DNA of 64,000 nucleotides from Pseudomonadales bacterium (GCA_020632265.1 JACKFW010000001.1:140223-204222), one strand, 5' to 3'. Numbered from the stretch's first letter, positions 2,087 to 59,574 are shown. Made by a program: numbers and translations. Notes: generated from the letters alone by a model not told the origin.

Positions 2087-2992
2087 TTGATGTCTGCCCA
2101 AACACAAACACCATCTGAAGAGCTTATAAAATTAAAGCGATATTTAGAAAAAACTAAAACAGATTTTTCTAAAGGTAATACTGATTTGCTTGAGTGGCTC
2201 CATGATCGAAATCTCAAAATTGAAAATCTAGGTAAAATAACCGATTCTGATCAGACAAATATTGAGAGTGCCGCTAATTCAGTAGATTCTCAAGTTATTG
2301 AAAAGTTTGCCAAAGAACCTACGGAAAAAGTTAAACTTGAAACTGAAATTTCTCTTGAAGAATATGATGCAATTTTTGAAAAGCTCGTAAACCTTCTAGT
2401 CCTCCCTGCCGGACAACTTGAAAGAGAGTCAGAACTTTATTTAGAACAGCAACTCACAGATTTATTGGGGTTTGATGTAGCAGCCAAACTTGATGACCAA
2501 CAACTCAACCATTCCACTGGTTTACTTGGTCCCGAACCTCATTTAAAACGTTATCCTAACGATGAACTAAAAAATCATGACGATGTCTTAGAAGCAGGAA
2601 TTGCTAATGCTCGAAGTGCTTTTGGCTGGTTTGTTAATCATGGCCAAATCACTCCAGAAGCAACACAGTTTGAAAAATATTACTTTAGTCTTCAACTATA
2701 CCATTTGGAAACTTGGAGCTCACACTATAAAGAGCTTAAAGAATGGTATAAATTCAGAAAAATGATTGCAATCAACCCAATGGAGAAAATTGCAGTTGTT
2801 GGGGTGGTTGGAAACATTGATCATGAAAGCCAACTAAAAAAACAATTTGGCGCTTCACCAGAAATTATTCGAGAAGGCATGATTTGGAGTCCAAAATCCA
2901 GGGGAAAAATCTTATTAATGTTTGTTGATGATCCAGAAAATAAAGTTCCATTAGGTCCAATCGATTTTAAACAGTTATTTAAGCAAAACTAA
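2087..2992 (+). CDS. hypothetical protein
   Basis: Long ORF of 301 aa with no recognisable motif. Confidence 0.45.
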   Translation: MMSAQTQTPSEELIKLKRYLEKTKTDFSKGNTDLLEWLHDRNLKIENLGKITDSDQTNIESAANSVDSQVIEKFAKEPTEKVKLETEISLEEYDAIFEKLVNLLVLPAGQLERESELYLEQQLTDLLGFDVAAKLDDQQLNHSTGLLGPEPHLKRYPNDELKNHDDVLEAGIANARSAFGWFVNHGQITPEATQFEKYYFSLQLYHLETWSSHYKELKEWYKFRKMIAINPMEKIAVVGVVGNIDHESQLKKQFGASPEIIREGMIWSPKSRGKILLMFVDDPENKVPLGPIDFKQLFKQN

Positions 2993-2995
2993 TTT

Positions 2996-3340
2996 ATGAA
3001 TAATAATTTAATTAATGTAGATTACTTTAAAAAAGTGTTTTATAAATCTCTCTTACCGCTTGAAAAGATTAATGAGTTTTTATCAACATTAAATGCAGAA
3101 AATGTTGATCCGGTTACTGAAGTTTTAATTTCTATTTTCAATGTAAGAATTATTGATACTTTGTTGGAAGATTTTGATGACCTGGAGGATAAGAAACAAT
3201 TTTTACGGATGTGCCAAGATGATTTTCAAAACCCGAAAATACTAGACTTTCTTGTTGAAAAATTTCCAGGTAGTCAAGAAATAATTTCCGAAACTATTGA
3301 AAGAACTATTCTGTCGGCAAATAAATCTCTTTCCGACTAA
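2996..3340 (+). CDS. hypothetical protein
   Basis: ORF of 114 aa tightly coupled to the preceding ORF. Confidence 0.4.
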   Translation: MNNNLINVDYFKKVFYKSLLPLEKINEFLSTLNAENVDPVTEVLISIFNVRIIDTLLEDFDDLEDKKQFLRMCQDDFQNPKILDFLVEKFPGSQEIISETIERTILSANKSLSD

Positions 3341-3491
3341 GACTCATTAATTCAAAAAAATCGAATCTTGTTACTATTCAGTTCCAAATTGGTGGCCGAA
3401 AAGATGACGTCATGATCAATAAAGAACTTTTTACAAAAAACCATCATTATCGTATTCAATTATTGTCTTCATTGTAGTATCTTGTATTAGT

Positions 3492-3881
3492 ATGCTAATT
3501 ATTAATCTACATGTTGGCTCTCGCTATCCTATCAACCGGAAAAAACTTCGGCAAACAGCTCAACTGGTTTTAAAAGAAAACAATATTGAACATGCTCAAA
3601 TCGACATCTCAATCGTAGGAAAAAGAAAAATTAAAAAACTCAATGAATCCGAATTAAAACATGAGGGTGTCACTGACGTACTTTCATTCCCTCAGCACGA
3701 AAAAAATAATTTATATGACTTCCCACTTCCAGAGGGAATTCCACCACACCTAGGTGATGTTGTAATTAGTTTTCCAGAAGCAGTACAGAGTGCAAAACGC
3801 TACGGCAAACTTGTTGATGACCAACTTTGCTTTTATTTACAACATGGCATGATGCATTTACTGGGATATCATCATGATTAA
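3492..3881 (+). CDS. ybeY: rRNA maturation endoribonuclease YbeY
   Basis: C-terminal HGMMHLLGYHHD matches the YbeY H-x3-H-x5-H metal-binding motif. About 130 aa. Confidence 0.8.
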   Translation: MLIINLHVGSRYPINRKKLRQTAQLVLKENNIEHAQIDISIVGKRKIKKLNESELKHEGVTDVLSFPQHEKNNLYDFPLPEGIPPHLGDVVISFPEAVQSAKRYGKLVDDQLCFYLQHGMMHLLGYHHD

Positions 3882-3934
3882 AATTTTTCAAAGTTACAAT
3901 AAATTACCATTTATTAAACAAAGAAACAAAAATA

Positions 3935-5677
3935 ATGTCTTGGAATAGAAAATACCGACCAACTAGAATTGAAGATCTGCACCTTGATTCGGTGCGTACC
4001 CAAATTCATCGCATGATGGATGCAGGGAAAATTCCTCAGGCCCTATTATTTTCTGGACCTAAAGGAACAGGCAAAACATCCTCTTCAAGAATTATTGGCG
4101 CAATAGTTAATGATCCAATAAACTATGATCAAGTGGATCAAGCATATTTTTCAAAAAAAGGTCAAAATGAAGCTGATAATAAAAAACCTTCCAAGACTCT
4201 AAACTCCAAATTACTCGAACCTAGTAATGATACTGATTTTGCAAATAAAATATTTGAGGGTTCATCATTTGTAGTTCAAGAGATGGATGCAGCCAGCAAT
4301 CGTGGCATTGACGACATTAGACAATTAAAAACCATGGCCTTTATGCCTCCTCAAGCTGGAAAAATGTCTGTGTTTATTCTTGATGAGGCTCATATGCTTA
4401 CAACCGAAGCATTTAATGCCTTACTCAAATTACTGGAAGAACCACCTGAGCACGCAATATTTATTTTAGCGACCACCGAAATTCACAAAATTCCTGCAAC
4501 GATTATTTCTAGATGTCAAACCATTGAGTTTCATAAAGCAACAAATCAAGAACTTTTAAACACTCTGAAACAAATACTTATCAATGAAAAAATTAAATTC
4601 GAAGACGAAGCGCTTGAAATAATTATCAATCGAGCTGATGGTAGTTTTAGAGATGCCATTAAATTATTGGAAATGACGGCCCAAACAGGTCAGGTAACAG
4701 TCAAAGAAGTCGGAATTTATTCCGCAGCCTCAATAGACAATGAAGTTACAAATTTAATTGATAACTTGTTAAATAAAGATGAAGTAAAGGTCGTAGAACT
4801 TTTTGAGGAACTTAGAAACAAAAATATCGAACAAAAATATTTTCACAAATCCTTACTTGAAATACTTCACACCAGTTTATTACAGAATTTGGGCGTTAAA
4901 GAGGGAAAACCCTTGGTAAATAAAAAAATTGCTCAATTTCTTTTGACTGAGTTAAGTGATGATTTTCTATCAACTCCGAGTCCAATCCCCCACTTAACTC
5001 TCGAATTAAAAATTCTTGAATTAATTGATAGATCAAAAAATAAAAATTCTAAGACAGTAAAAAAAAATCCTGAAAAATTAAAAGTTTTATCAAAAAAAGA
5101 AACAGGATTCAGTTCTGGTTCAAGTTTTGATTCTGGATTAAATCCTGGTTCAAATTTAAATCCTGGTTCTAATTTAAATAATCACGATAACTCTGTCGGA
5201 ATAAACGACCTAAAGCAATTTGGTTCAGTAGACTCAAATATCAACTTAGTGGATTCCATCTCTAACACAAACTTTACCCCAAAGATTGATAAATTCTTTC
5301 CAAGTGAAACCAAAAGAGCTATTGAAGCATTAGATTCATTGGAATTGAATGGTGATGGCAACAAACTTTGTCAAAAATGGCATAACTTCGTTGACTTAGT
5401 AGCTGAAAATAATTCTACCCTTGCCTCACTTCTAAGATCTGCGAAGCCAATTTCTGGAAAAATTGGAGAAGCAACTATTGGGGTTTTCTATAAATTTCAT
5501 CAAGAACAATTATCCCAACCAAAATTTAACACCCTAATTCAAGAATTCATCAAAAGTGTTGCAGACGGATATTTAAAACTTGATTTTATTTTAACCCAAA
5601 CTCCAATCAAAGCTGAATTGGTTGAAATTGAAAATAATGAATCCTTAGCTCAGGTTGCTTCTCAAGCCTTAATGTAG
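3935..5677 (+). CDS. dnaX: DNA polymerase III subunit gamma/tau
   Basis: Walker A GPKGTGKTS and clamp-loader box ILDEAHML. Followed by ybaB as in the canonical dnaX-ybaB arrangement. Contains an S/G/N-rich tandem-repeat linker. Confidence 0.9.
   Translation: MSWNRKYRPTRIEDLHLDSVRTQIHRMMDAGKIPQALLFSGPKGTGKTSSSRIIGAIVNDPINYDQVDQAYFSKKGQNEADNKKPSKTLNSKLLEPSNDTDFANKIFEGSSFVVQEMDAASNRGIDDIRQLKTMAFMPPQAGKMSVFILDEAHMLTTEAFNALLKLLEEPPEHAIFILATTEIHKIPATIISRCQTIEFHKATNQELLNTLKQILINEKIKFEDEALEIIINRADGSFRDAIKLLEMTAQTGQVTVKEVGIYSAASIDNEVTNLIDNLLNKDEVKVVELFEELRNKNIEQKYFHKSLLEILHTSLLQNLGVKEGKPLVNKKIAQFLLTELSDDFLSTPSPIPHLTLELKILELIDRSKNKNSKTVKKNPEKLKVLSKKETGFSSGSSFDSGLNPGSNLNPGSNLNNHDNSVGINDLKQFGSVDSNINLVDSISNTNFTPKIDKFFPSETKRAIEALDSLELNGDGNKLCQKWHNFVDLVAENNSTLASLLRSAKPISGKIGEATIGVFYKFHQEQLSQPKFNTLIQEFIKSVADGYLKLDFILTQTPIKAELVEIENNESLAQVASQALM
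5059..5067 (+). promoter_or_regulatory. A9 homopolymer slippery site (A AAA AAA in the zero frame) inside dnaX; -1 and +1 frames terminate within 2-5 codons
   Basis: gta aaa aaa aat cct ga. The -1 frame reads aaa tcc tga and the +1 frame reaches taa after 4 codons. It sits at about residue 375 of 580, the domain III/linker boundary. Confidence 0.5.
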
Positions 5678-17167: not shown

Positions 17168-17269
17168 TTATACATCTTTCATATCTTTTAATTGTAACAA
17201 ATATTAAATTAAATAGTTTTTATAAAATAGATAATTCAAATACATAGATATATAAAGATATATTTAAAA

Positions 17270-17301
17270 GATCCCGTATTTAGACGCTATTCGAACCTAT
17301 T
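17270..17301. repeat. 32-nt dispersed repeat (family 2), copy 1 of 3: gatcccgtatttagacgctattcgaacctatt
   Basis: Near-identical to the copies at about 21821 and 22789. Shares gatcccg...ttcgaacc with the tRNA-Gln 3' end. Confidence 0.7.
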
Positions 17302-17338
17302 ATATAAAATTGATACTGTATAATACTAAGAAATAAAT

Positions 17339-18028
17339 ATGAAAATTAGCAAATACTTGAATAGAAATAAAGCCATTGAATATGCAAGAATGTCTTGGCC
17401 CGAACTTGGATATAACTCAAGTATGGAGCCTTTCTATAGTTGGGTTATAAATTTAATTAAAAAAATTAATAACCCAAAAGAAATAAATTCAATCGTAGAA
17501 ATTGGCTTTGGAGCAGGAAGAATTTTGTATGAGTTAAGTAAACAATTTCCAAACGTTAAAATTCAAGGGCTTGAATTTTCCAGTGACATGAAAAAAATAT
17601 CCGAACAAATTTTAATTTCTAAAGATATATTTGCAATAACTGAAGATCAAAAAATAATTGGAAAAAAACTTGAAAATATTAATTTAAAAGATGGAGTGGA
17701 TATACAAAACTTGAATGAAGTAAAATCTAACCAATTTGACCTAACAGTATGTATTAATGTTCTTGATAGAATAGTAAATCCTAAAAAAGCAACTAAAGAG
17801 TTACTAAGAATAACAAAAATAGAAGGATATTGTATCATTGTTAATGCTTTCGATTATGAAGAAAAAACTCCATTAAAAATGCAAATTGACCCAATATCAT
17901 TTGAGAACTTATTAAATGATCTTAATTTCAAAATATTAACTCAAAAGAAATCAAAACTAGTTAAATCACTGCCAAAAAAACCAATCAGAATATTCAATGA
18001 ATACGGTTACGTTTTACAAAAAAAATAA
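17339..18028 (+). CDS. class I SAM-dependent methyltransferase
   Basis: Motif I VEIGFGAGRIL. About 229 aa. Confidence 0.7.
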   Translation: MKISKYLNRNKAIEYARMSWPELGYNSSMEPFYSWVINLIKKINNPKEINSIVEIGFGAGRILYELSKQFPNVKIQGLEFSSDMKKISEQILISKDIFAITEDQKIIGKKLENINLKDGVDIQNLNEVKSNQFDLTVCINVLDRIVNPKKATKELLRITKIEGYCIIVNAFDYEEKTPLKMQIDPISFENLLNDLNFKILTQKKSKLVKSLPKKPIRIFNEYGYVLQKK

Positions 18029-18031
18029 GAG

Positions 18032-19888
18032 TTAAATGCTAATATATTCATAAACTAACATTCTTTGTAAATATGCTTCAATTTTTTTATATATTTGTTG
18101 GTCAGTCTTATAACCAGTTATTTCAAAATACTGAGCCAACAATACTATTGCAATATATGCCTCTACAGAAATATTAATTTTTTTTGAGTATTTTTTCTGC
18201 AATTTATCAATAATATTTTTCCTTTTTTTAGCAACATTTTCCTTAATATTAGTTATCAGTGGAGATGCTTTCCACTGAGTTGGATATAATAAAGTATTAT
18301 CAGATCCACTAAAACTAATTTCATCTAGAATAATTTTATTTTTAATTGCCTCAAGCCTATTATTTTTCATCAAAGTTAACACACTTGGTGAGTTTGGTGT
18401 AGCAAACACTCCAAAGGTTGCATAAATAATAGCACCCCTTGATAACCAGTATAAAGACTTTTCTGTCGTTAACCTAAGTGATTGATCTGTTTCAAATTGA
18501 TTAAATAACATCAAATTAATTTCTGGAGTAATACCAACTTCCAACATATAGCTTAATGATTCATTAATATTAGCATCAGAAAAATTATTTTTACTCAATC
18601 CAGATCTTACTGTTGAATCAAAACTTTCTACACCACAAGCAATTCGAACGAAATTTGCTTTAAATAATGCGTCTATCAACTCTTGATTGAACGAAGTAAT
18701 TCTCATTTTTCCATGCTTTGGTTGAATCAACCCATTCTTAACCATTTGACCACATAACCAAATCATTTTCTCTGGATCATTTGCTAAATCATTATTATTA
18801 AAAGAAATTACATCAGCATGTTTACCAATATCTAATAAATAGGCTAATTCTTGTTCTCTTGAGTTAAAAACTAAGTTTTTAGGAACAGCACAATATGAAC
18901 ATTTTTGACTACAACTATTATCTGACAAAACTTGAATTGAACCTGTTGCAACTCCATCAACAGAGACCGAATTGGCACTTGAATACATTTGTGGATGAAT
19001 TAAATCCAAATGGCCTTGTGGTATAAATTGATCTTTTGCCGTTTTTCTTGATTGTATGATTCTCTCTAAAATACTTTCCCAATTCTCATTAGTATATAAA
19101 TCTGGAAAATGTTTATGGGCAAATTGCCTTATACTATTTCTAGAAACATCTGTGTTATTGTGTAGGTATTTTGCCAATACTTCTAGCTCTTTAACAGCAT
19201 ATCCTGGAATGATTAAATCAACTGGTAGCACTTCATCTAAGCCTTTTCTCCCCGACATTGTTGGCAAATACTGCAAAGAATCACTGCCAATACCACCAAC
19301 AATTTTTCTTGAGTTTGGAAAAATTTTGTGTATTAACTCAAACAAACTAATATCGTTTCTTAAGTTTACTGGCAACATACTAAAACCAAAAACTACCTGA
19401 GATCCTGGTATTATAAATTCTGATATTTTTGTTAAAAGTTCAGTGGGAGAAGAAAACATATTTGGATCAATACAAAGCGTTGTTGCTTCTTGAGACTTTG
19501 CTAATAACCATTCAGATATTACCCACATACCTTCTGAAGGGACATTAGATGTCCATTCACTGTCTCCTAATAAGCCATAACTTGATATAAAAATAAACTG
19601 CACTGGATTTAAAATTAAATCATCTTTATTTAAAGAAGATGCAGTAAATTTATCAAGGCTTTTAATCTTAATATTAAAAAGCCTAACATTTTTTAATTCA
19701 GAAAATAATTGTAATAAATTAATCTTTTGCTTATCACTGATATGAACTTCATTATTTAATTGACGAACTGTAAGTACCCCATCAGTAATTGAAACTGTAA
19801 CTAAATGTACCTCACTGAAAGGTTTTTGTATATTTTCATACAGGAGATGATCTTCATATCGGCGATGATTTTCAACTGCTCTTTTCAT
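18032..19888 (-). CDS. B12-binding-domain-containing (class B-like) radical SAM protein
   Basis: CSQKCSYC = CxxxCxxC at about residue 335. N-terminal Rossmann-like region of about 300 aa. 618 aa. Confidence 0.65.
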   Translation of the reverse strand: MKRAVENHRRYEDHLLYENIQKPFSEVHLVTVSITDGVLTVRQLNNEVHISDKQKINLLQLFSELKNVRLFNIKIKSLDKFTASSLNKDDLILNPVQFIFISSYGLLGDSEWTSNVPSEGMWVISEWLLAKSQEATTLCIDPNMFSSPTELLTKISEFIIPGSQVVFGFSMLPVNLRNDISLFELIHKIFPNSRKIVGGIGSDSLQYLPTMSGRKGLDEVLPVDLIIPGYAVKELEVLAKYLHNNTDVSRNSIRQFAHKHFPDLYTNENWESILERIIQSRKTAKDQFIPQGHLDLIHPQMYSSANSVSVDGVATGSIQVLSDNSCSQKCSYCAVPKNLVFNSREQELAYLLDIGKHADVISFNNNDLANDPEKMIWLCGQMVKNGLIQPKHGKMRITSFNQELIDALFKANFVRIACGVESFDSTVRSGLSKNNFSDANINESLSYMLEVGITPEINLMLFNQFETDQSLRLTTEKSLYWLSRGAIIYATFGVFATPNSPSVLTLMKNNRLEAIKNKIILDEISFSGSDNTLLYPTQWKASPLITNIKENVAKKRKNIIDKLQKKYSKKINISVEAYIAIVLLAQYFEITGYKTDQQIYKKIEAYLQRMLVYEYISI

Positions 19889-19955
19889 ATATTTGGTTTG
19901 TTCATGTGTGTATTATATCTGTATTATATAGTATAATTATATTTTTTCAAAAAAT

Positions 19956-20666
19956 ATGTCAAAAGAATCAAGAACAATAATTAGCATCAAAGCCAAAATT
20001 GAACCTCCCTTTTTTCGAAAAGAAGACATGAGAGGCAAGAAAGGGATTACAATTGCTTTACAAAAAAGCGGTGAGCTTTCTAATATTGCTCTCATTACCT
20101 TATCACAGATCTTAAATAGAAGTATTCCAAAAGAACCTAATGATAGAAAATTTTTTGTAAAAAATGGTGACGATAATTTAGTTTTTGCTAGAAATTCAGA
20201 TATTGTTCATCTTGTTAACAGTGGCGCAGCAGATATCGCTGTTATTGGTATAGATCGACTAATTGAAGAAGGATTTGGACATTTAGTTGGAATTCAGACA
20301 CAAAATATAGATACAAATATACTAATAATAAAATGTTTAGAGACATTACAGCCATGGAGAATAGTTCTTGCAACAAAACAAAAACTACTAGACCTAAGAC
20401 AAATTAGTCAAATTGCAACAAGTTATCCAATAATAGCCCAGGTATTTTTTAACACACTTTCTCAAGATATAAATCTTATTTCAGTTAATGGAAGTACGGA
20501 AGCGATGATTAATCTCAAGTTTAACAATGCACCAATCGATGCTATCATTGATTTAACTGTATCAGGGAAAACCCTTAAAGCGAACGGGTTGATTCCTTGG
20601 AAAAATGATATACTCCATATTTACCCAGTCGTTATTGCAAATAAACAATTCTTGCAAAGTTTATAA
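19956..20666 (+). CDS. hisG: ATP phosphoribosyltransferase (HisG, short form)-like protein
   Basis: Blocks ITIALQKSGEL, DIAVIGIDRLIEEGF, IATSYPIIAQVFF and STEAMINL..APIDAIIDLTVSGKTLKANGL align to conserved HisG blocks. Confidence 0.55.
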   Translation: MSKESRTIISIKAKIEPPFFRKEDMRGKKGITIALQKSGELSNIALITLSQILNRSIPKEPNDRKFFVKNGDDNLVFARNSDIVHLVNSGAADIAVIGIDRLIEEGFGHLVGIQTQNIDTNILIIKCLETLQPWRIVLATKQKLLDLRQISQIATSYPIIAQVFFNTLSQDINLISVNGSTEAMINLKFNNAPIDAIIDLTVSGKTLKANGLIPWKNDILHIYPVVIANKQFLQSL

Positions 20667-20705
20667 AACATGATTTTTTTAGATAGTAAGTAGATCAAAA
20701 CCAGT

Positions 20706-21249
20706 TTAAGTTTCAAGTTTAATTAAATTCAAGTCGATCGTATTTGATGATTTGTATTGTCTGACAATTTCACCAATAATGAATAAAACATATTTTTCTC
20801 TCAAAGATGGAGGTATCAGGGGTGATAAATTTAGCACAACTTTCCTTCCATAACTAATTCTTCCATCAGCTTGAGTACTGTGATATATAGGATCTTCTCG
20901 ACTAACCCTTCCAGAAATTGTTGTGTATCCAGTGGAAAAAGTGGCGGGTGTTGACAAATTATTGTCAACAACACTCAATATTGCATGTTCAAGAACGTGT
21001 GCAAATTCATCTGGGTATTCTGGTTCCTCCAAATCATCATACCAAAGTTCGTAGCCACGATTAGATGCTCTTAATCTTAATTGATCTTCAAGTTTTTTTT
21101 ACAGAATTAAATAAAAGCCTAGCAGGAATTTCCAACTCTAACCTATATAATAAATCCTTATCTAAAACTACAGAAGGAAACTTTTTTTCAAATGGAGATC
21201 GCTCAACAGTATAAACTTTTTTTATGTTTTTTGAATTTACTTCAAACAT
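20706..21249 (-). pseudogene. conserved hypothetical gene split by a frameshift in an A8 run (upstream part MFEVNSKNIKK...NSVKKT*, downstream part is track ORF 20706..21032)
   Basis: Removing one A from gtaaaaaaaac fuses the two reading frames into one protein of about 181 aa. The downstream ORF starts at a TTG with no independent RBS. Confidence 0.45.
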
Positions 21250-21284
21250 ATAAATATCGTAACATAAAACAATTCATTAATAAT

Positions 21285-21569
21285 CTACTCAATATTAAAT
21301 AGGTTTTTAAGAATTGCTAGTATTGTTGAGTCTTCAATATGTTGACCCGCAGCTATATTCTCTATTCCTCTTCTTTGCAAACCAACTCTTTGTTTTTTAG
21401 ATTTGGGTTGAACACTAACCTGTATGGGTCTTCCATTCACAACAGCATCAGTTTTATTACCATAATCTTCTTGAGTAGTAGCTAATCTAGCAGATAAACC
21501 TAATCTTAATGCAATATCTACTACTCTTTCCTCTGCCGCCCGTCCATTTTCTTGCGATTTTCTTGTCAT
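21285..21569 (-). CDS. hypothetical protein
   Basis: 94 aa, basic. No motif. Confidence 0.35.
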   Translation of the reverse strand: MTRKSQENGRAAEERVVDIALRLGLSARLATTQEDYGNKTDAVVNGRPIQVSVQPKSKKQRVGLQRRGIENIAAGQHIEDSTILAILKNLFNIE

Positions 21570-21671
21570 AAGAAATTATTTTATCAAAAATGAACTATAT
21601 TGTAAATTACTTGAGCAATAGCGAATAAAAATAATATTATTTATATTCGTATATAGTTATAATTGTTTGAA

Positions 21672-21757
21672 GATCCCAGACTAGGGTTCACGACTCGCTT
21701 CACTCACATGCACTAGGAAGGTGTTTCGCATTCGCTCTACACTTTCCGTCGCGAACC
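21672..21757 (-). repeat. GC-rich structured repeat (family 1, copy A) beginning with an 18-19-nt copy of the tRNA-Gln 3' end
   Basis: gatcccagactagggttc. Conserved blocks gcactaggaagg, cattcgct and ttccgtcgcgaacc are shared with copy B. The ends GGTTCGCGAC and GTCGTGAACC can pair. Confidence 0.65.
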
Positions 21758-21785
21758 AAATAATTTCAATCTTACAATTCAAGAT

Positions 21786-21821
21786 CAAATAATTAACCAG
21801 CTTTCGCTGGTTAATTATTTG
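21786..21821. terminator. perfect 16-bp hairpin (caaataattaaccagc-tttc-gctggttaattatttg)
   Basis: Palindrome read directly. No clear U-tract. Lies between family-1 copy A and family-2 copy 2. Confidence 0.4.
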
Positions 21822-21852
21822 ATCCCGTACGTGGACAGTATTCGAACCTATT
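21821..21852. repeat. 32-nt dispersed repeat (family 2), copy 2 of 3: gatcccgtacgtggacagtattcgaacctatt
   Basis: Sequence identity to the copies at about 17270 and 22789. Confidence 0.7.
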
Positions 21853-21879
21853 TTGTACACACATGCTACAATCTAACTG

Positions 21880-22239
21880 ATGAAAAAAATATATGATGAT
21901 CTAAGTAATTCAGAAGAAGTTAATTCTTTTTTAAAAACTATTCCTTACCAAAACAGACGAGAGGCTATATTTAAAGCTAAAGAGAATCTAGAAGAGATAA
22001 CATTGAGGATATGGTTAGAAGAACTTGCTAATATATCAGAAAAAATTAAGAATAAAAACAACCTACAACCAAATCTACAGGGATGGCAAAATTACTTAAA
22101 ACTAGGCTTTTCAAAAGATAAATTTAGAAGAAAATACGGATTTGATGATTGGTCAACTAAATATAAAATGGAAATGTTTATTCAATATGAAGAAGATGAC
22201 TACAGAAAAAAAATGGTGATACTAAATTTTTACGGTTAA
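21880..22239 (+). CDS. hypothetical protein
   Basis: 119 aa. No motif. Confidence 0.4.
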   Translation: MKKIYDDLSNSEEVNSFLKTIPYQNRREAIFKAKENLEEITLRIWLEELANISEKIKNKNNLQPNLQGWQNYLKLGFSKDKFRRKYGFDDWSTKYKMEMFIQYEEDDYRKKMVILNFYG

Positions 22240-22367
22240 AAAATAAAAGTTTTTTTGAATATTACTTTGGAGGTGCTGGCATAAATCCAGAAATTTGGTG
22301 GGCAAAGAAGAAAAATATAAATCCAAACAGCCTTCTTGTTCATGCACTCACTCCAAAATCCTTATTA

Positions 22368-22697
22368 ATGGTAATAAGAACAGGAACAGTTGGAAGAGGA
22401 AGTTTTGATCAAGTCGCTATGAGCCAAGATAGAATAATATATAATTCTGGGTATGCAATTATTTTTCAAGCAAGTGACTTAGTGAAAGCTGGCTACTCAT
22501 TATTACCAATACAGGAAGTCAGTCGTGATTCACATATTCTGCAAGAATGGAGATCGCCTGTTGCAATAGATATTAACATAGCTCGTTTAATTGTACCAAT
22601 TTCTGATATACCTGACCACAAAAATGCTACTAAATCTCAAATTGCTAGAAGTTATTTTGGTGAAAAGTTCCTCAAAAACTTAAAAAGAATATATTAA
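22368..22697 (+). CDS. hypothetical protein
   Basis: 109 aa. No motif. Confidence 0.35.
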   Translation: MVIRTGTVGRGSFDQVAMSQDRIIYNSGYAIIFQASDLVKAGYSLLPIQEVSRDSHILQEWRSPVAIDINIARLIVPISDIPDHKNATKSQIARSYFGEKFLKNLKRIY

Positions 22698-22788
22698 TAA
22701 TTTTTTCTACCAAAAAAGACATTGTCCAACCTAGTTTTGTTACTTAAATTTAAAAATTAGATTGATATATAATGATATATTTGAAAAA

Positions 22789-22820
22789 GATCCCGTACGT
22801 GGACGCTATTCGAACCTATT
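22789..22820. repeat. 32-nt dispersed repeat (family 2), copy 3 of 3: gatcccgtacgtggacgctattcgaacctatt
   Basis: Sequence identity to the other two copies. Confidence 0.7.
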
Positions 22821-22831
22821 TAATAGTAAAA

Positions 22832-23221
22832 TCAACTGGAGAGGGATTTTATTACAGCGAGAACTGAGTCGTATTGTTCACTTGTAATATTTTTGCTGAA
22901 TCTGCCATTAAACCCACCAAACTTCAAACCGCCACCATTTTCATAATCAACAGAGTGAGTATCAATAAACATATAGGCTTTTGAACCATCAAGATATGTT
23001 ATGTCTATCCTTCTGTGTCCGACACTGTGATTATCCCTGATAAACTCTATTCGAAAATGATTTTTTTCTTCATCAGTATGTTCTACAGTTGCCTCTTGAT
23101 ATAATGGATGATTAGTATTAGTCCATATTAATTTTCCCCGAGCTATTATGCAATCCATGGCACTAATAAATTGTCCTGTATGTGGGTGAAATTGTTCCGT
23201 TCGATCGATTTCAGTTTTCAT
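22832..23221 (-). CDS. hypothetical protein (start moved to the internal ATG preceded by AAGGAG)
   Basis: The track ORF extends to 23290 into the family-1 repeat. The internal Met (MKTEIDRTEQ...) has a good RBS (aaggagaagagaatATG). Confidence 0.45.
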   Translation of the reverse strand: MKTEIDRTEQFHPHTGQFISAMDCIIARGKLIWTNTNHPLYQEATVEHTDEEKNHFRIEFIRDNHSVGHRRIDITYLDGSKAYMFIDTHSVDYENGGGLKFGGFNGRFSKNITSEQYDSVLAVIKSLSS

Positions 23222-23270
23222 ATTCTCTTCTCCTTCATTATATTTAAATGATATTATATCATTTAAATTT

Positions 23271-23371
23271 GATCCCGGACTAGGGTTCACGACTCGCCAC
23301 TATTTACACTTTCTGGATGTTGGCTCGCTTGCACTAGGAAGGCTCACTACATTCGCTTTCCGTCGCGAACC
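23271..23371 (-). repeat. GC-rich structured repeat (family 1, copy B) beginning with a 19-nt copy of the tRNA-Gln 3' end
   Basis: gatcccggactagggttc. Shares conserved blocks and the terminal pairing with copy A. Lies about 70 nt downstream of tRNA-Gln on the same strand. Confidence 0.65.
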
Positions 23372-23432: not shown

Positions 23433-23438
23433 ATTATG

Positions 23439-23509
23439 ATCCCGGACTAGGGTTCGAACCTAGGATAACAGTTCCAGAAACTGTTGTGATGCCACTTCAC
23501 TATCCGGGA
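23439..23509 (-). tRNA. tRNA-Gln (anticodon CUG)
   Basis: Manual fold of TCCCGGA-TA-GTGA-AGTGGCA-TCAC-A-ACAGT-TTCTGGA-ACTGT-TATC-CTAGG-TTCGAAC-CCTAG-TCCGGGA-T. Has the bacterial tRNA-Gln U1:A72 pair. CCA is not encoded. Confidence 0.85.
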
Positions 23510-53317: not shown

Positions 53318-53389
53318 GGCCCCATCGTCTAGCGGTTAGGACACCAGGTTCTCATCCTGGCAGCCAGAGTTCGATTCTCTGTGGGGTCA
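53318..53389 (+). tRNA. tRNA-Glu (anticodon CUC)
   Basis: Manual fold: GGCCCCA acceptor; anticodon arm CCAGG-TTCTCAT-CCTGG; T-arm CAGAG-TTCGATT-CTCTG; 3' acceptor TGGGGTC; discriminator A. Confidence 0.85.
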
Positions 53390-53574
53390 CAATATAAAAA
53401 AAGATCCATTTATGGATTCTTTTTTTATATTGTGGTCGCATAGTTTGAAAAGCACTCCGCCGAGCAAAGCGAAGCAGAGTTCTGACGGAGAGTGCAAAGC
53501 ACCCTCCTAATGCAAGTGAACCATCCTACAGAAATCATAAATTGTGGCGAATCGTAGATTCTCTGTGGGGTCAC
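53385..53574 (+). repeat. 190-bp repeat R190, copy 1; begins inside the tRNA-Glu 3' end and ends with a second copy of the tRNA 3' 18-19-mer (gattctctgtggggtcac)
   Basis: About 95% identical to 55448..55637. Contains a terminator-like hairpin (aaaaaaagatccat-tt-atggatcttttttt) and a GC-rich segment. Confidence 0.8.
53396..53427 (+). terminator. intrinsic terminator after tRNA-Glu (A-run, gatccat-tt-atggat, T-run)
   Basis: Palindrome read directly. Also present, with a perfect stem, in R190 copy 2 at about 55459..55490. Confidence 0.55.
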
Positions 53575-53596
53575 ATTTTTGTTAAGAACACACTAA

Positions 53597-54097
53597 TTAT
53601 TCTATATTATAAATTTCATTCATCACAAAATGAAAAGCGTCACCAAATTTTTTAGGATTTTCCTTTAATTCTTTCAGTAACTGATCCCTTGAAAATCTTT
53701 CATAAGAATCAGATTCATGATTCAACACAGGTTCCTCATCGGAATATATTTCATAAACAATAAAATAATGGTTTTCTTTTCTTCCAATAACTTCTCTGTT
53801 GTAGATCTTCTTACCAACAAACTTAAAATCAAATTCTGTAATACCCAATTCTTCTTCAGTCTCTCTTCTTAATGCTTCTTCTTCAGTTTCACCAGACCGA
53901 ATATGTCCTCCAACAGGAGATACATACTGTCCAGCATCTTGTCTATCATTTGCTTGTTTTACTAAAATCCAGTTACCGTGTGAATCAATTAGTTCTGAAA
54001 TAATAACTCTATGTAGAATGCCTTTTTCATGACACTCTACTTTAGGACAATTACCTGTTACTTCATCTTTTGCATTTACTATGTCAACTATTTCCAT
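53597..54097 (-). CDS. Nudix hydrolase
   Basis: Nudix box GGHIRSGETEEEALRRETEEELGI. Confidence 0.8.
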   Translation of the reverse strand: MEIVDIVNAKDEVTGNCPKVECHEKGILHRVIISELIDSHGNWILVKQANDRQDAGQYVSPVGGHIRSGETEEEALRRETEEELGITEFDFKFVGKKIYNREVIGRKENHYFIVYEIYSDEEPVLNHESDSYERFSRDQLLKELKENPKKFGDAFHFVMNEIYNIE

Positions 54098-54123
54098 ATA
54101 TTATGTTCTAAATTTGCTTTCAA

Positions 54124-55335
54124 CTACTCAACTTTTACAAACTTCTTTTTACCCTCAAGAGTAACCTTCATAACTTTCATATAAATCAAAATAAAAATAA
54201 ATACTCCTACTGCATACAAAGCAGAAATTAGCAGTGCTGTTCTTAATTCAAAAGTATCAAATACATATCCAGCAACAATAGCTAATACAGATGCCACTAA
54301 AGCCTCATATACCTTAATACTTGAAAGAGTTGTTGCCCTAATCTTTGATGGTATATGCTTTTGTCCAAAACTATTTATTATTGCTTCTTTAAATGGCTCA
54401 GATACATAAAAAACCATTGCAGATAATAAACCTACAAAACCAAAAAACTTGCTCATTCCAAACAACCCTATTGCAAAAATAAACCAAGAAATAAACATTA
54501 GTTGGAACTCACTTAAATACTGTTTTAACTTTGCAAACTGAGAAACTACTATTGCTTGTAATCCATAAACAATTGCAACAAAAACTCCTAACCATTTAAC
54601 ATCAAATAGTTCTAAACCTAAAATGTATGGCTTATCAACTGAATGGATAAAGTAGTGGTGAAACCCATATAGCAATGAGACAAATAACGTAATAAAAAAC
54701 AACTCTTTTGAAATTAAAATATGCTTTAACCCTGCAAATACATTTAGCTCTTCTTCAACAATACTTTCTGAAGCTTTTTTTTCAGATTTCATAAACCAAA
54801 CTATTACAGCAGAAATGCAAAAGAATACTGCTAAAAGATAATACGGATAATTATGATTTATCGAAAACAAATATGCACCAATAATACTTCCTATAGCAGC
54901 TGCTATATAATTAACACTTCCACTGTAAGAAATAATTTCATCATATATTGAAACTTTTTTTTGAGAATCTAAATAATCATAAATATATGCTTCAAGAGAA
55001 CCAGAAATAAAAGAAATACCTAACATCCAAACTGCAGCAAAGAATGCAAACTGGATAGTAGTTTCTAAACCAGTCCAAATTAACGACGTTGCTGTCATTG
55101 TAATTAAACCAACAATAACACTAGCTTTTCTTCCAAATTTATCACCAAAAAAACCTGTTGGAATTTCAAACAAAAAACCAGCTACAGAAAACACTCCAAA
55201 AACTATGGCAATGTCTGCATAACTTAAGCCTTTTGCTAAGAAAAATAAGGCAATAATTACGTTGATTGGATATAATCCATAAATGAATTTATATAGTATG
55301 TATAAAAATAAGGTTTTGTCTTTGAGATATTTCAT
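54124..55335 (-). CDS. MFS transporter
   Basis: 12 TM segments and a GDKFGRK-type MFS motif between TM2 and TM3. Confidence 0.75.
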   Translation of the reverse strand: MKYLKDKTLFLYILYKFIYGLYPINVIIALFFLAKGLSYADIAIVFGVFSVAGFLFEIPTGFFGDKFGRKASVIVGLITMTATSLIWTGLETTIQFAFFAAVWMLGISFISGSLEAYIYDYLDSQKKVSIYDEIISYSGSVNYIAAAIGSIIGAYLFSINHNYPYYLLAVFFCISAVIVWFMKSEKKASESIVEEELNVFAGLKHILISKELFFITLFVSLLYGFHHYFIHSVDKPYILGLELFDVKWLGVFVAIVYGLQAIVVSQFAKLKQYLSEFQLMFISWFIFAIGLFGMSKFFGFVGLLSAMVFYVSEPFKEAIINSFGQKHIPSKIRATTLSSIKVYEALVASVLAIVAGYVFDTFELRTALLISALYAVGVFIFILIYMKVMKVTLEGKKKFVKVE

Positions 55336-55386
55336 CTATGTGATTTTATCATTAAATGTAACTACTTATATTTAGCAGTTGGTACA

Positions 55387-55445
55387 CAATATATAAGACG
55401 TAGCCTCTCGAGGTTTTCAAGAAATGGTTCAAACTGAGTTACCTT
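55387..55445 (+). repeat. repeat X, copy 1 (tatataagacgta..cctct..tggttcaaactgagtta.ctt)
   Basis: About 75% identity to 60361..60420. Immediately precedes R190 copy 2. Confidence 0.5.
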
Positions 55446-55447
55446 AA

Positions 55448-55637
55448 GGTCACAATATAAAAAAAGATCCATTTATGGATCCTTTTTTTATATTTTGGTC
55501 GCATAAATTGAAAAGCACTCCGCCGAGCAAAGCGAAGCAGAGTTCTGACGAAGAGTGCAAAGCACCCTCCTAATGCAAGTGAGCCATCCTACAGAAATCA
55601 TAAATTGTGGCGAATCGTAGATTCTCTGTGGGGTCAC
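55448..55637 (+). repeat. 190-bp repeat R190, copy 2, ending with a third copy of the tRNA-Glu 3' 19-mer
   Basis: Direct repeat of 53385..53574 with about 9 mismatches. Confidence 0.8.
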
Positions 55638-55783
55638 AAGTATCGTTTTGTTCAGTGCGACCCGTAAGGGTGCGCAGAAAATCCCGATAAAACCTACTAA
55701 TTTTTCTTCAACTTCTTCAAAATGTCGTTTTAGATCCTGTAATTATTTACAAAGTTTTTTATAATGATATACTTCGATGTACT

Positions 55784-57049
55784 ATGAATGTAGAAAAAAC
55801 TCCCAAACATATTATTCGAGCCGTAGTTGATACTCTCCAAGAATGCAACCTTAGATGCCAGTACTGTCACCCGGGTCATACCTGGGAAAAGAAACACTTG
55901 TCAGCTAATCTTATAGAACAAACACTTAGTGAGGCAGAGCAACGTGGTTTATTAGAAGTTACTTTAACTGGTGGAGAAATCACACTCCATCCCGAATTGG
56001 TAAAAATCTTGGAGTCAACTCAAGTTTTAGATCGTACAGTTTCAACTCTCATTACTAATGGCACAACCATGACCCCTGAATTAGCTAGACAGTTTCGTGA
56101 TTCTAACGTTTCCAGAATTTGTACCAGTATCGATGGCCCAGATGCCGGTACACATAACACATACAGGGGAAACTCATTTGACAGAGCAATAAATGGCTTG
56201 CGTTTACTGCAAGAAACGGGAAAACCAATTACCGTTATCACTGTTGCCCACCACAAAAACTACGAGCATGTTCTTGAACTAAGTAATCTCCTTGCCAAAG
56301 AAGGACTCGCGGCAGAACATCACATCTGTGCTCCATCATATTCTGGTACTGCCAAAGATAACTATGAAGAATTTAGATTGAGACAAGAAGAGTTTTTTGC
56401 TCTGCAACAAATGGTAGATGATTCATATCAGGATTTAAAAAACCAAGGATTGTTTGTTACTTTCAACTCTTTTTGGCCCGCTACTGGAGAAAGAGCAAAA
56501 ACCAATAACTCCAGGACAATTACTCTAGTTCAGTTAACAGAACAGCTAAAAGATTGCTATATCATCGTCCGTCCAAATGGTGACGTTAGGCTAACTGCTG
56601 CTGCATGGGGAAGAGAAACTATTGGTAATGCAGTAACGGGAAATCTTCATACTGACAGCGTTAAAATCGCTCTTAATCAAGCTGAACAAATATACAATCA
56701 AGGTTTAGTGAAGCAACTTCCAAGAGAGATCGAGGCTGTTCACAAATTTCATTACGGGAAAGATGTCAATCCTGCAATAACCAATAAGATACTTAGTGAT
56801 AAAGAAAGTGGTGCCGGTTTAGTTCAAATGGTACCAATTAAGCCACTCTCGGAGTCAGATCTGTTCCAGATACCTCTTTCCGAAGAACAAATGCTGTCTA
56901 TTGCGAGCAATCTCCAAATGCAACCAGACAGATACAGGCTTGTTAACATTGCTGGCAATTCATACGTACTGTTTGATAGGCTGACAACCCACATTACTCT
57001 TCTCAAGCCTGAGGAAGTGCTTATGATTGTTGGCTTAGGAAGTCACTAA
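55784..57049 (+). CDS. radical SAM domain protein
   Basis: CNLRCQYC = CxxxCxxC at residue 21, and TLTGGE glycine-rich SAM motif. 421 aa. Higher GC than its surroundings. Confidence 0.8.
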   Translation: MNVEKTPKHIIRAVVDTLQECNLRCQYCHPGHTWEKKHLSANLIEQTLSEAEQRGLLEVTLTGGEITLHPELVKILESTQVLDRTVSTLITNGTTMTPELARQFRDSNVSRICTSIDGPDAGTHNTYRGNSFDRAINGLRLLQETGKPITVITVAHHKNYEHVLELSNLLAKEGLAAEHHICAPSYSGTAKDNYEEFRLRQEEFFALQQMVDDSYQDLKNQGLFVTFNSFWPATGERAKTNNSRTITLVQLTEQLKDCYIIVRPNGDVRLTAAAWGRETIGNAVTGNLHTDSVKIALNQAEQIYNQGLVKQLPREIEAVHKFHYGKDVNPAITNKILSDKESGAGLVQMVPIKPLSESDLFQIPLSEEQMLSIASNLQMQPDRYRLVNIAGNSYVLFDRLTTHITLLKPEEVLMIVGLGSH

Positions 57050-57051
57050 AT

Positions 57052-58440
57052 ATGCCTTTAAAAGAAGTTGACACAAGACTTCTAAGGGCGCTAAGTGAAT
57101 ACAGAGCTTTTGTTAGCGCTCTAGCCATTGAAACTGGCCAGCGATCCTTAATTAGAGATATCATACTTAGCGAGCCTTCTACTACATCTGCTAAAATTAT
57201 GAAGGCTGTGGGGATTTCGGCCGAGGAGTTAGTAAAAATCTATCGAGACTTGCAAACGGATGAAGAATTTCAGTTAGCAGTCAACTCTCCTTACTATTCT
57301 CGCCGTCTCATGTTTAATGTCGCGCGAACAGTCGTGCATGATCTGGCCTCTGACTCTGATTATACTCAGAGATTGATCTCAGGAGATCCAGTATCTTCAA
57401 GAGTAGTTGAACTTCATACAACCAAAGGAACTTGTAACTACAACTGTGTGATGTGCTTATGGTCAGATAAAGGGGAACGTACCTATGACACAGCTCAGAT
57501 GAAGGGTTTTGGCTTAATGCAAACTGAGGAATGGAAAAACACTTTAGCAACCATCCGCGAGTTTGGTACCAAAGTAGCTGTTTTTTCTGGTGGAGGTGAA
57601 GTATTGCTGAATAAGGATTTTTTCAGATTGCTGGCGTTCTCACATTCGGTTGGTCTGAAAACCCAGCTCTATACTAGTGGATACAACATGACCCATCTTG
57701 AGGAGGAAGAGTGGGGAGAATTGTTGAACATGGATCGAATTAGATTTAGCATACACTCATCAAATGAGGGCACATACAATGATATTGTTAGTATGCCAGA
57801 ACACGCTCATGCACTCACTAAAGTTGACAACAACTTAAAGTTATTATTAGAGAAACGAAATATCGTAGGCTCCGATTTAAAAATAGGTATTGGATTCGTG
57901 ATACAGCCACTAAATACAATGCAGGTAGAGGATATTGTTGAGTTTGCAAAAAGGACTGGAGTGGACTATCTCAACATCCGCCGGGATGAAATTTTAGTAA
58001 CCAATCCTCTGGATCAAGAATCAGAAGTCGAGCTCAGAAAGCAGTTATTACGCATTAGACAAAACATTGTTAATGGCGTTTATGGGAATTTAGAAATTGA
58101 TTTTTCGGACAATTTAGTTGCATTTATGAACGAGGAGAAATACTTACTACCTCAAGTGCCACAATGTGTTATCAAACACTTTAGACCCACTATTAATCCG
58201 TATGGTCTGTGGAATTCGTGTGATCTTAAAGGTGAACCAATGTATGCGGATCCAGATTTTGTGATTGGTGATCTACATCAGGATGGTGTTGTAAAAATTT
58301 TGGCTCGCACACAGCAAACAACTATCCCTGCAGCATGTACAAGTTGTATGCCCAGTGGTCAAACTGGAAATGCTATTTTCACTAAATTACTTCAAGATCA
58401 CGCTTTGGGGATTGATTTTAAAGATCAGCCATTTTTTTAA
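57052..58440 (+). CDS. radical SAM domain protein with an N-terminal extension of about 110 aa
   Basis: CNYNCVMC = CxxxCxxC at about residue 128, and FSGGGE. Start lies 2 nt after the preceding stop, consistent with an operon. Confidence 0.8.
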   Translation: MPLKEVDTRLLRALSEYRAFVSALAIETGQRSLIRDIILSEPSTTSAKIMKAVGISAEELVKIYRDLQTDEEFQLAVNSPYYSRRLMFNVARTVVHDLASDSDYTQRLISGDPVSSRVVELHTTKGTCNYNCVMCLWSDKGERTYDTAQMKGFGLMQTEEWKNTLATIREFGTKVAVFSGGGEVLLNKDFFRLLAFSHSVGLKTQLYTSGYNMTHLEEEEWGELLNMDRIRFSIHSSNEGTYNDIVSMPEHAHALTKVDNNLKLLLEKRNIVGSDLKIGIGFVIQPLNTMQVEDIVEFAKRTGVDYLNIRRDEILVTNPLDQESEVELRKQLLRIRQNIVNGVYGNLEIDFSDNLVAFMNEEKYLLPQVPQCVIKHFRPTINPYGLWNSCDLKGEPMYADPDFVIGDLHQDGVVKILARTQQTTIPAACTSCMPSGQTGNAIFTKLLQDHALGIDFKDQPFF

Positions 58441-58897
58441 TCACGTCTTTTACCGTTTGACTTGTCGGTGTATTAGACTGATCGATATCACGAAAACTAA
58501 CTTTGACGACGTCCTTCCCGTTTCCCTTGGTCACAAATTTTCCTGATACTTCATAGATAAAATAGAATTTTCGGAAAGTTTTCCATGCCTGGTGAGATTC
58601 TAAATCATAAAATAATTCATTAGCAGAATAAATAAGATTATCTTCACGAATAGATTCATCAATCAGAACGAGGCCAGTCTCTTCCCAGAATTCCCTACGG
58701 AGCGCTTCTTTTTCGGTCTCACCCATTTCAACACCACCACCAGGAAACTCCCATAGGTTTGATTTCGAATCCTGAACCATTAAAAATAATCCACTCATTT
58801 TATACACAGCATAGACTGCAATACGCTGAATTAAGTCAGCCTCTAATACTTGGTGACTCTTGCCTTTGGCATCTTGAATTTGTATGAATGTATTCAT
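58418..58897 (-). CDS. Nudix hydrolase
   Basis: Nudix box GGGVEMGETEKEALRREFWEETGL. Confidence 0.8.
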   Translation of the reverse strand: MNTFIQIQDAKGKSHQVLEADLIQRIAVYAVYKMSGLFLMVQDSKSNLWEFPGGGVEMGETEKEALRREFWEETGLVLIDESIREDNLIYSANELFYDLESHQAWKTFRKFYFIYEVSGKFVTKGNGKDVVKVSFRDIDQSNTPTSQTVKDVIKKMADL

Positions 58898-59574
58898 TAT
58901 TGATTAGCCTCTGTTTTATGTATGCCTGTGGTGGTTTTCAAGAAGAAGTGATTGCCGTTCATTTCTAAAACAACGTAGGCTGTATTTTCAATTGAACCTT
59001 TTGTTAATTCATCAAAGGTTGAAAAACCAATTTTCATTAGCAAAGATTTCATAAGTGCACCATGAAAAACAACTAGAATTGAAAGACCCTTATAGATCAA
59101 CTCTAATTCTTTTATAAAGGTTAAAAAACGCAAGGCTGCTTCTTCAAAAGTTTCCATGTCTTCGCTAATTCGGAAGTTTACCTTTTCCTGCTGAGATAGT
59201 CGCCGAAAAGTATCTGGTACTATATTGTGTCGATCAAAAAAAATTTTGTGTAAGTTGCCGGCACTGGTTTCACGGATACGTTGAGAAGTGCTCACTGAAA
59301 GTTGGTGACGGACAGCAATAATCTCTCCTGTTTTTTGGGCTTTTTTAGCATCGGATGAAAAGACCGCATTCAAATGAATGTTTTGAAATTTTTCTGAAAG
59401 TATCGTGGCCTGCTCGATGCCCAGGGATGTAAGGTCGCTATCATGCCAAAGTGAGGAATCCTGACTTGCTCCAGCATCAGATAGGACATTAGTTTGAGAT
59501 CGAGCATGTCTAACTAAGTAAAATATGGTCGATGGTGGAAAATTTTGAGGAGATTTGTTCATAACTTGAAACAT
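58897..59574 (-). CDS. histidine phosphatase (phosphoglycerate mutase-like) family protein
   Basis: N-terminal LVRHARSQ (RHG-like) and C-terminal VVFHGALMK second-His motif. Overlaps the Nudix gene by 1 nt. Confidence 0.6.
   Translation of the reverse strand: MFQVMNKSPQNFPPSTIFYLVRHARSQTNVLSDAGASQDSSLWHDSDLTSLGIEQATILSEKFQNIHLNAVFSSDAKKAQKTGEIIAVRHQLSVSTSQRIRETSAGNLHKIFFDRHNIVPDTFRRLSQQEKVNFRISEDMETFEEAALRFLTFIKELELIYKGLSILVVFHGALMKSLLMKIGFSTFDELTKGSIENTAYVVLEMNGNHFFLKTTTGIHKTEANQ

Follow-up and report, generated by a model that had tools for sequence, protein, structure and literature searches.

In the pathway to pentostatin, the HisG homologue PenA couples 5-phosphoribosyl 1-pyrophosphate (PRPP) to an adenine nucleotide, and an early intermediate of the histidine pathway is led to a product other than histidine (PMC12648386). 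Other described systems close to the one treated here are the ATP phosphoribosyltransferase HisGS of the HisGS-HisZ type, the class B radical S-adenosylmethionine (SAM) enzymes TsrM, CysS, TokK, MgmA and OxsB, and the viperin-type synthesis of antiviral nucleotides. The present analysis concerns a stretch of 64,000 nucleotides (GCA_020632265.1, JACKFW010000001.1:140223-204222), hereafter the window, from an organism labelled "Pseudomonadales bacterium", in which a HisG-like gene stands beside the genes for a radical SAM enzyme and a class I SAM-dependent methyltransferase (MT). This trio recurs in four independent lineages, and its conservation is a new result; no paper describing the combination was found in the literature. 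The cassette is rare, mobile and uncharacterised, and it is built from known enzyme superfamilies.

As in the pentostatin clusters, which comprise PenA, PenB and PenC, a HisG homologue would here be built into a specialised nucleoside pathway, in this case one proposed from the genes. However, neither a PenB-like short-chain dehydrogenase nor a PenC-like SAICAR-synthetase homologue was found among the genes of the island described below or in the related loci L001, L007, L021 and L027; the partners are instead a radical SAM enzyme of the class B type together with a class I MT, and the hosts lie outside the actinomycetes. The likeness to viperin-type systems lies in the radical SAM enzyme that is fused or adjacent to a thymidylate- or cytidylate-kinase-like protein in some relatives, and in the location of the window cassette on a tRNA-gene island. 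However, the fold class is not that of viperin, and a search of the PADLOC-DB v2 defence models gave only weak generic matches for the MT and nothing for the radical SAM and HisG proteins.

The window has a guanine plus cytosine (GC) content of about 31%. Five genes are encoded between 17.3 and 21.6 kb, among which are all four that the original prediction had placed there:

17339-18028, plus strand: class I SAM-dependent MT of 229 residues, with Pfam MT families above cut-off.
18032-19888, minus strand: radical SAM enzyme of 618 residues with the architecture of the cobalamin class (class B), recognised by fold and motif.
19956-20666, plus strand: divergent HisG of 236 residues, a catalytic core lacking the regulatory domain, recognised by PF01634 and TIGR00070.
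20706-21249, minus strand: gene of unknown function split by one frameshift into pieces of 53 and 108 residues (open reading frames 21088-21249 and 20706-21032).
21285-21569, minus strand: unknown open reading frame (ORF) of 94 residues within the island.

The MT and radical SAM genes are convergent and lie 3 bp apart, and the HisG gene is divergent from the radical SAM gene. Neighbourhood conservation analysis showed the trio in the following arrangements:

Window: MT, radical SAM enzyme, HisG; host GC 0.30.
L001 and L021-23: M20 peptidase, HisG, HisE, MT-radical SAM fusion, in this order; host GC 0.39.
L007: nucleotidyltransferase, radical SAM enzyme, MT, HisG, in this order; host GC 0.67.
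L027: HisG, radical SAM enzyme, transposase insertion, MT, in this order; host GC 0.60.

The linked HisG copies do not descend from a single recruitment in the trees, which are neighbour-joining trees of small samples. Those of L001/L021 and L007 fall on two branches of the long-form type, that of L027 on a short-form branch, and that of the window on a long, deep branch. The copies of L007 and L027 reach 170-173 bits on TIGR00070, about twice the score of the window copy (86.8). None of the linked copies carries PF08029, the C-terminal domain that binds histidine, and no HisZ gene adjoins any of them. The apparently repeated recruitment of HisG from different branches suggests that the cassette requires HisG for its ordinary reaction. 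In the L001 locus, the 93-residue product encoded beside HisG is a genuine HisE (phosphoribosyl-ATP diphosphatase), which scores 118 bits on NF001611 with a cut-off of 99. Since HisE is present there without HisI, the arrangement points to phosphoribosyl-AMP as the branch point at which the pathway would leave histidine synthesis. Two attempts to define a dedicated subfamily of linked HisG proteins were abandoned: a profile of three linked copies ran into ordinary HisG at about 230 bits, so that there is no dedicated subfamily, and the motif QKxG(R/E), considered as a derived mark of the copies linked to the radical SAM gene, proved in a broader alignment to be the normal motif of long-form HisG, the linked copies being polyphyletic.

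Transposases or integrase-type genes flank the loci L002, L008 and L027. In L027, a DDE_3 transposase (2933-4018) lies between the radical SAM and MT genes of an otherwise same-strand HisG-radical SAM-MT operon. In L021 and L001, an rRNA operon abuts the gene of the MT-radical SAM fusion; its 23S rRNA match (L021 12103-15577, also L001 1-1312) measures 3475 nucleotides against a model of 2925, which implies an insertion of about 550 nucleotides.

The pairing of the MT with the radical SAM enzyme is more widespread than the linkage of HisG. The MT of the window, recognised as such in the original prediction, is borne out by five generic class I MT families of Pfam above their gathering cut-offs, such as Methyltransf_31 (39.6 bits, cut-off 27) and Methyltransf_11 (36.8, cut-off 21.2). 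The signature of its family consists of KY..KA.EYA.MSW, EPFY, EIGFGAGR, NVLDR and A.DYE..TP, and EIGFGAGR, the GxGxG motif for SAM, is conserved. A structure model of the MT, built from a two-sequence alignment, reached a pLDDT of 45, too low for use in fold comparison. The MT is the commonest partner of the radical SAM enzyme, being its direct or close neighbour in the window, L002, L007, L008, L010, L015, L026 and L027. Counted over about 14 loci, several of which lie on short contigs, the two are paired in nine lineages, one of which contains a fusion. In that case (P0022 of the L001/L021 lineage), the MT is joined to the N-terminus of the radical SAM enzyme, and the fused domain aligns end to end with the window MT at 35% identity (E 5e-40). 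Because the MT-linked members are scattered across the neighbour-joining tree of the radical SAM family, the pairing looks ancestral.

The radical SAM protein begins with a small domain, which is followed by a Rossmann domain at about residues 95-260, a radical SAM barrel and a C-terminal helical region with a conserved YISI end. The cysteine motif C326xxxC330xxC333 is invariant in the family alignment (A1), and the barrel aligns to many radical SAM structures; PF04055 gives 25.5 bits on the window protein, under its cut-off of 29.5. The family is small. A word-indexed search found 13 relatives with 33-47% identity, which share 60 invariant columns, and when 1.84 billion cluster representatives were searched exhaustively with a profile, about 15 full-length members scored above 400 bits, after which the scores fell off sharply. 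The 185,579 species-representative genomes yielded two loci and the metagenome set of the Joint Genome Institute (JGI) eight, and no member occurs in the plasmid, phage and viral collections.

In fold comparison, the best structural match of the window radical SAM protein is TsrM, a tryptophan C2-methyltransferase, and MgmA, OxsB and TokK are also matched. OxsB is a cobalamin-class radical SAM enzyme able to act on adenine nucleotides, and 434 of its residues align to the window protein with 16% identity. The Rossmann-type domain stands at the N-terminal position equivalent to the B12-binding domain, and PF02310, the Pfam model of that domain, was found at the equivalent position in the more distant relatives P0159, P0158 and P0184. 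A gene for a corrinoid adenosyltransferase of the CobA/BtuR or PduO type lies directly upstream of the family radical SAM gene in L017, L018 and L019. The designation "class-B-like" is thus supported by fold and context, with use of cobalamin being putative. Identity to the solved class B enzymes is 10-16%, and the window family differs from them in its own small N-terminal domain and in the conserved C-terminal YISI. Some distant relatives, including P0165 and P0184, are embedded in giant multidomain proteins of 2000-6600 residues: P0165 combines an MT domain, two stretches matching radical SAM enzymes and a weak B12-domain match, and in P0184 a B12-radical SAM unit is fused to a DprA-like DNA_processg_A domain.

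The similarity of the third protein to HisG held under profile search, with 80.6 bits on PF01634 (cut-off 25.5) and 86.8 on TIGR00070 (cut-off 75.75). If translation began at M25 (20028), the length would be 212 residues, which is more typical. The C-terminal signature block DAIIDL..SGKTLKANGL is present, together with SD, GAAD, ATSYP, GSTE and the PRPP loop (alignment A2 and alignments to chains of the Protein Data Bank, PDB). In the length of its catalytic core the protein matches HisGS, chains of which are its best PDB matches (E about 4e-10). Mapped on HisGS of Psychrobacter arcticus (chain 5m8h_E, numbered one higher than the native protein), window residues R64/K65 correspond to Arg56/Lys57 and C127 to Cys115, so that these positions and the PRPP loop are kept. 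The window copy departs from HisGS in two insertions, in the absence of HisZ nearby and in the replacement of Arg32, which is considered below, and its identity to any HisG is at most 34%. Its N-terminal QKSGE resembles the QKxGR of long-form HisG.

The window was annotated with Pfam or precomputed annotation over about 13-24.9, 32-45 and 53.6-63 kb, and for the other ORFs the first 40 residues were inspected by eye. Within this scope, no other his gene (hisD, C, B, H, A, F, I, E or Z) was recognised, and the description of the window HisG as an orphan stands for the annotated parts. The window copy lacks PF08029, and a HisZ-like gene is likewise absent from the annotated parts. The accompanying statement that short HisG normally needs HisZ was too strong: HisGS is active without HisZ, which activates it about 29-fold (PMC9734150).

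The cassette occupies the outermost segment (17307-21672) of an island whose borders are formed by repeats related to a tRNA gene:

17248-17306, minus strand: repeat D1a, like the 3' half of a tRNA, at the left border of the island, with the GGTTCGAA T-loop and a CGGGATC acceptor strand.
21656-21721, minus strand: repeat D2a plus D3, the first copy of the 3' end of tRNA-Gln, together with neighbouring sequence.
21799-21857, minus strand: repeat D1b, bordering the cassette segment on the right and overlapping the hairpin 21783-21824.
22767-22825, minus strand: repeat D1c, 80% identical to D1a over 59 nucleotides.
23255-23342, minus strand: repeat D2b plus D3, the second copy of the tRNA-Gln 3' end.
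23438-23509, minus strand: tRNA-Gln (CTG), the presumed integration target.

A 32-nucleotide core occurs in three copies, at 17270, 21821 and 22789, with a chance expectation of none, and the two copies of the tRNA-Gln 3' end are found at 21672 and 23271. All five repeats (17270 to 23288) align in the same orientation to the 3' half of tRNA-Gln and have in common the GGTTCGAA T-loop and the CGGGATC acceptor strand. The flanking of the locus by a dispersed repeat and by scars of tRNA-Gln, as originally described, was therefore found again in the form of five tRNA-half repeats. This arrangement is the trace expected from repeated integration at a tRNA gene. The GC content of the island is 0.30, close to that of its flanks, and no integrase or recombinase domain was found in any ORF from 17.3 to 23.4 kb. 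A perfect 19-nucleotide inverted repeat with a 4-nucleotide loop (21783-21824) overlaps the start of D1b.

Other members of the radical SAM family have different partners. A thymidylate-kinase-like domain is fused to the radical SAM enzyme in P0156, and the separate neighbour gene in L018 encodes a protein 46% identical to the fused domain; L004 contains a P-loop ORF of the same thymidylate-kinase-like type. Further neighbours are a NUDIX gene (in one case), a sugar-phosphate nucleotidyltransferase, additional radical SAM genes and a divergent gene resembling indole-3-glycerol-phosphate synthase, which is under every TrpC cut-off, as well as the CobC-like phosphatase of L010 considered below. 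The kinase, NUDIX, phosphatase, nucleotidyltransferase and synthase-like partners give the wider family a nucleotide theme, which speaks for the reading preferred here. TrpD in L019 was discarded as a partner; it lies within a trpE-trpG-trpD run and is probably an ordinary neighbour. In two different lineages the family gene adjoins pheS (L016 2195-5158) or pheS-pheT (L019 8031-15378). In a Desulfobacterales lineage lacking the MT, an ORF of 316 residues overlaps the stop codon of the radical SAM gene (L012 9785-10735, equal to L014 3271-3921); it has no match in Pfam or NCBIfam and may be an alternative partner.

The reading that we prefer, tentatively and with somewhat less than even confidence, is that the window contains a horizontally acquired island at tRNA-Gln, the conserved cassette of which would serve the synthesis of a specialised nucleotide-derived product and not that of histidine. 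The view in the original prediction of an accessory tailoring pathway, as opposed to amino-acid biosynthesis, is supported by the MT-radical SAM fusion, the trio in four lineages, the class B fold, the B12-binding domain or corrinoid adenosyltransferase neighbours of relatives, and the tRNA-half repeats. In the first step, a HisG core devoid of the histidine-sensing domain would condense ATP and PRPP to N1-(5-phosphoribosyl)-ATP, which, where HisE is present, would be trimmed to phosphoribosyl-AMP. The cobalamin-type radical SAM enzyme would then take this N-phosphoribosyl purine nucleotide, or a compound closely derived from it, as its substrate, most likely for C-methylation at an unactivated carbon, an OxsB-type rearrangement also being conceivable. 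Finally, the class I MT would add a methyl group to a heteroatom, possibly a ring nitrogen. A stricter version of this scheme is itself rather doubtful. According to it, the locus would define a hitherto unknown route leaving histidine biosynthesis at its first intermediate, in which a cobalamin-dependent radical SAM enzyme C-methylates or rearranges phosphoribosyl-ATP or -AMP and the MT N-methylates it; the product would be a modified purine nucleotide, that is, an antiviral or antimicrobial analogue or a signal. A product of this kind could explain the movement of the cassette between distant bacteria on islands and beside transposases.

Several points weigh against a nucleotide-derived product. 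HisG is present in 4 of about 14 lineages and appears to be an optional partner, and the window HisG is the most divergent of the linked copies (86.8 against about 170 bits). The window radical SAM protein has no match to PF02310 at E <= 0.1, so that the class-B-like assignment of the original prediction holds for the Rossmann domain, the CxxxCxxC motif and the fold but not for a B12 domain recognisable by Pfam. Beside TsrM, MgmA, OxsB and TokK, the Rossmann-bearing AprD4 is also among the top structural matches, and it is the only PDB match to the family profile (22.7 bits). AprD4 is, to our knowledge, not a cobalamin enzyme. The members linked to the kinase or to CobA fall in a clade of their own that has neither MT nor HisG, and their nucleotide theme may not be transferable to the members linked to MT and HisG. 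Riboswitch searches of the window and of 16 related loci were negative, and neither a riboswitch nor a regulator offers a clue to the role. The gene identities, the radical SAM fold, the MT-radical SAM fusion, the recurrent HisG/HisE linkage and the borders of the island are direct observations; what the enzymes act on, in which order, by what chemistry and whether with cobalamin, and what role the cassette plays, we infer from them.

The catalytic residues of the window HisG gave a mixed picture as well. R64, K65 and C127 are kept, but the position of Arg32 in P. arcticus HisGS is taken by Gly39/Glu40, and one of the two leaving-group arginines is therefore gone. Both arginines stabilise the departing pyrophosphate, the R32A replacement costing 25-fold and R56A 42-fold, and at least one of them is required for activity (PMC9734150). 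Because one leaving-group arginine suffices for residual activity and HisGS is active without HisZ, the window HisG could still be active despite the loss.

A histidine-derived product is the alternative that survives best, although we regard it as unlikely. In this case, the histidine-insensitive HisG, together with HisE where present, would push flux into the histidine pathway of the host, and the radical SAM enzyme and the MT would methylate histidine or a histidine-containing molecule at a ring carbon and a ring nitrogen. The lack of the regulatory domain in all linked HisG copies, the lack of HisZ nearby and the recruitment of HisG from several branches speak for this reading, as does the best structural match of the radical SAM enzyme, TsrM, which methylates C2 of tryptophan. 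The most consistent specific match of the MT is the C-terminal mercaptohistidine N-methyltransferase of OvoA (TIGR04345), found in 9/10 members with a best E of 3e-12, with weaker matches to DREV/METTL9 and CARME. However, the TIGR04345 score of 41.9 bits is far under the cut-off of 170 and is equalled by generic UbiE/BioC matches, so that it is to be taken as a lead only. The M20 peptidase of L001/L021 counts in favour as well, but the protein is not specifically an Xaa-His dipeptidase. Moreover, such a route needs hisI, hisA, hisF, hisH, hisB, hisC and hisD, none of which was recognised in the annotated stretches of the window or in the flanking regions of L001, L021 and L007, and the source is a small genome (a contig of 1.08 Mb). 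The duplication of HisE without HisI would also be odd if only flux were wanted.

The state of the neighbouring gene bears on a second alternative. The frameshifted gene of the original prediction is indeed there: one frameshift at an A8 run near 21085 joins the two ORFs into a protein of about 180 residues. The independent read-based assembly L024 is identical (100% over 11,857 bases), and the frameshift is for this reason probably real. The repaired protein has no match in Pfam or PDB; it contains HVLEH, and the idea that this marks an M16 peptidase found no support. With this gene broken in two assemblies and no integrase left in the island, the window copy could be decaying, which adds to the points against the preferred reading. 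The cassette would then have been functional when acquired, with the HisG-like gene and its neighbour now losing function, as the lowest profile score, the very long branch and the missing Arg32 of the window HisG might indicate. We consider this quite improbable, since the three enzyme ORFs are intact and full length and HisG keeps R64/K65, C127, the GAAD block, ATSYP, GSTE and the PRPP loop, one leaving-group arginine being enough for activity (PMC9734150). The radical SAM enzyme also keeps all 60 family-invariant residues, which follows from the construction of alignment A1.

Tailoring of the lower ligand or nucleotide loop of a cobamide appears very improbable. Following the logic of CobT plus BzaC plus BzaD/BzaE, the phosphoribosyltransferase would activate a purine or a base of the benzimidazole type, which the MT and the B12-radical SAM enzyme would methylate. 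The gene set of class B radical SAM enzyme, MT and phosphoribosyltransferase has this composition, and corrinoid adenosyltransferase genes lie directly upstream of the radical SAM gene in three loci (L017, L018 and L019), but that clade is without MT and HisG, and supply of the cofactor is a simpler account of it. A CobC-like phosphatase in L010 has alpha-ribazole phosphatase as its best match, but its 60 bits are far under the cut-off of 162.9. CobS, CobU, CobT and CbiZ occur in none of the loci, and the linked HisG and HisE are typical enzymes of the histidine pathway. Lastly, it is scarcely credible that the window gene, although its product passes the HisG equivalog cut-off, is the ordinary hisG of a scattered histidine pathway that came to lie beside an unrelated MT-radical SAM pair by chance, because the adjacency is found in four independent lineages with differing gene orders and with HisG from different branches, and the cassette copy of L007 (Polyangiales label, a host with a large genome) is likely to be an extra paralogue.

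Elsewhere in the window, a second cluster with an accessory appearance (53318-59574) lies directly after a tRNA-Glu, in a stretch whose GC content reaches 0.41, the mean of the window being 0.31. The cluster comprises a NUDIX gene, a major facilitator superfamily (MFS) transporter, two adjacent radical SAM genes (421 and 462 residues), a second NUDIX gene and a His_Phos_1 phosphatase. A link between its radical SAM genes (55.8-58.4 kb) and the extra radical SAM genes of L017/L019 was rejected, the similarity being that of radical SAM enzymes in general. The label "Pseudomonadales bacterium" fits poorly with the GC content of 31%, the contig of 1.08 Mb and the many glycosyltransferase genes of the GT-C/PMT type, and it is probably wrong.

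The cassette is small, consisting of three genes, or of two where MT and radical SAM enzyme are fused, and the GC contents of L027, L007 and L001 are convenient for expression, which makes the hypothesis directly testable. One may also ask why a pathway so demanding in cofactors is kept by a bacterium whose contig measures only 1.08 Mb. If the proposed scheme is true, a cobalamin-type radical SAM enzyme would provide a second route by which early histidine chemistry is diverted, beside that of pentostatin, the only one cited here (PMC12648386), which would mean new nucleotide chemistry, and a rare and unstudied radical SAM family would acquire a function.

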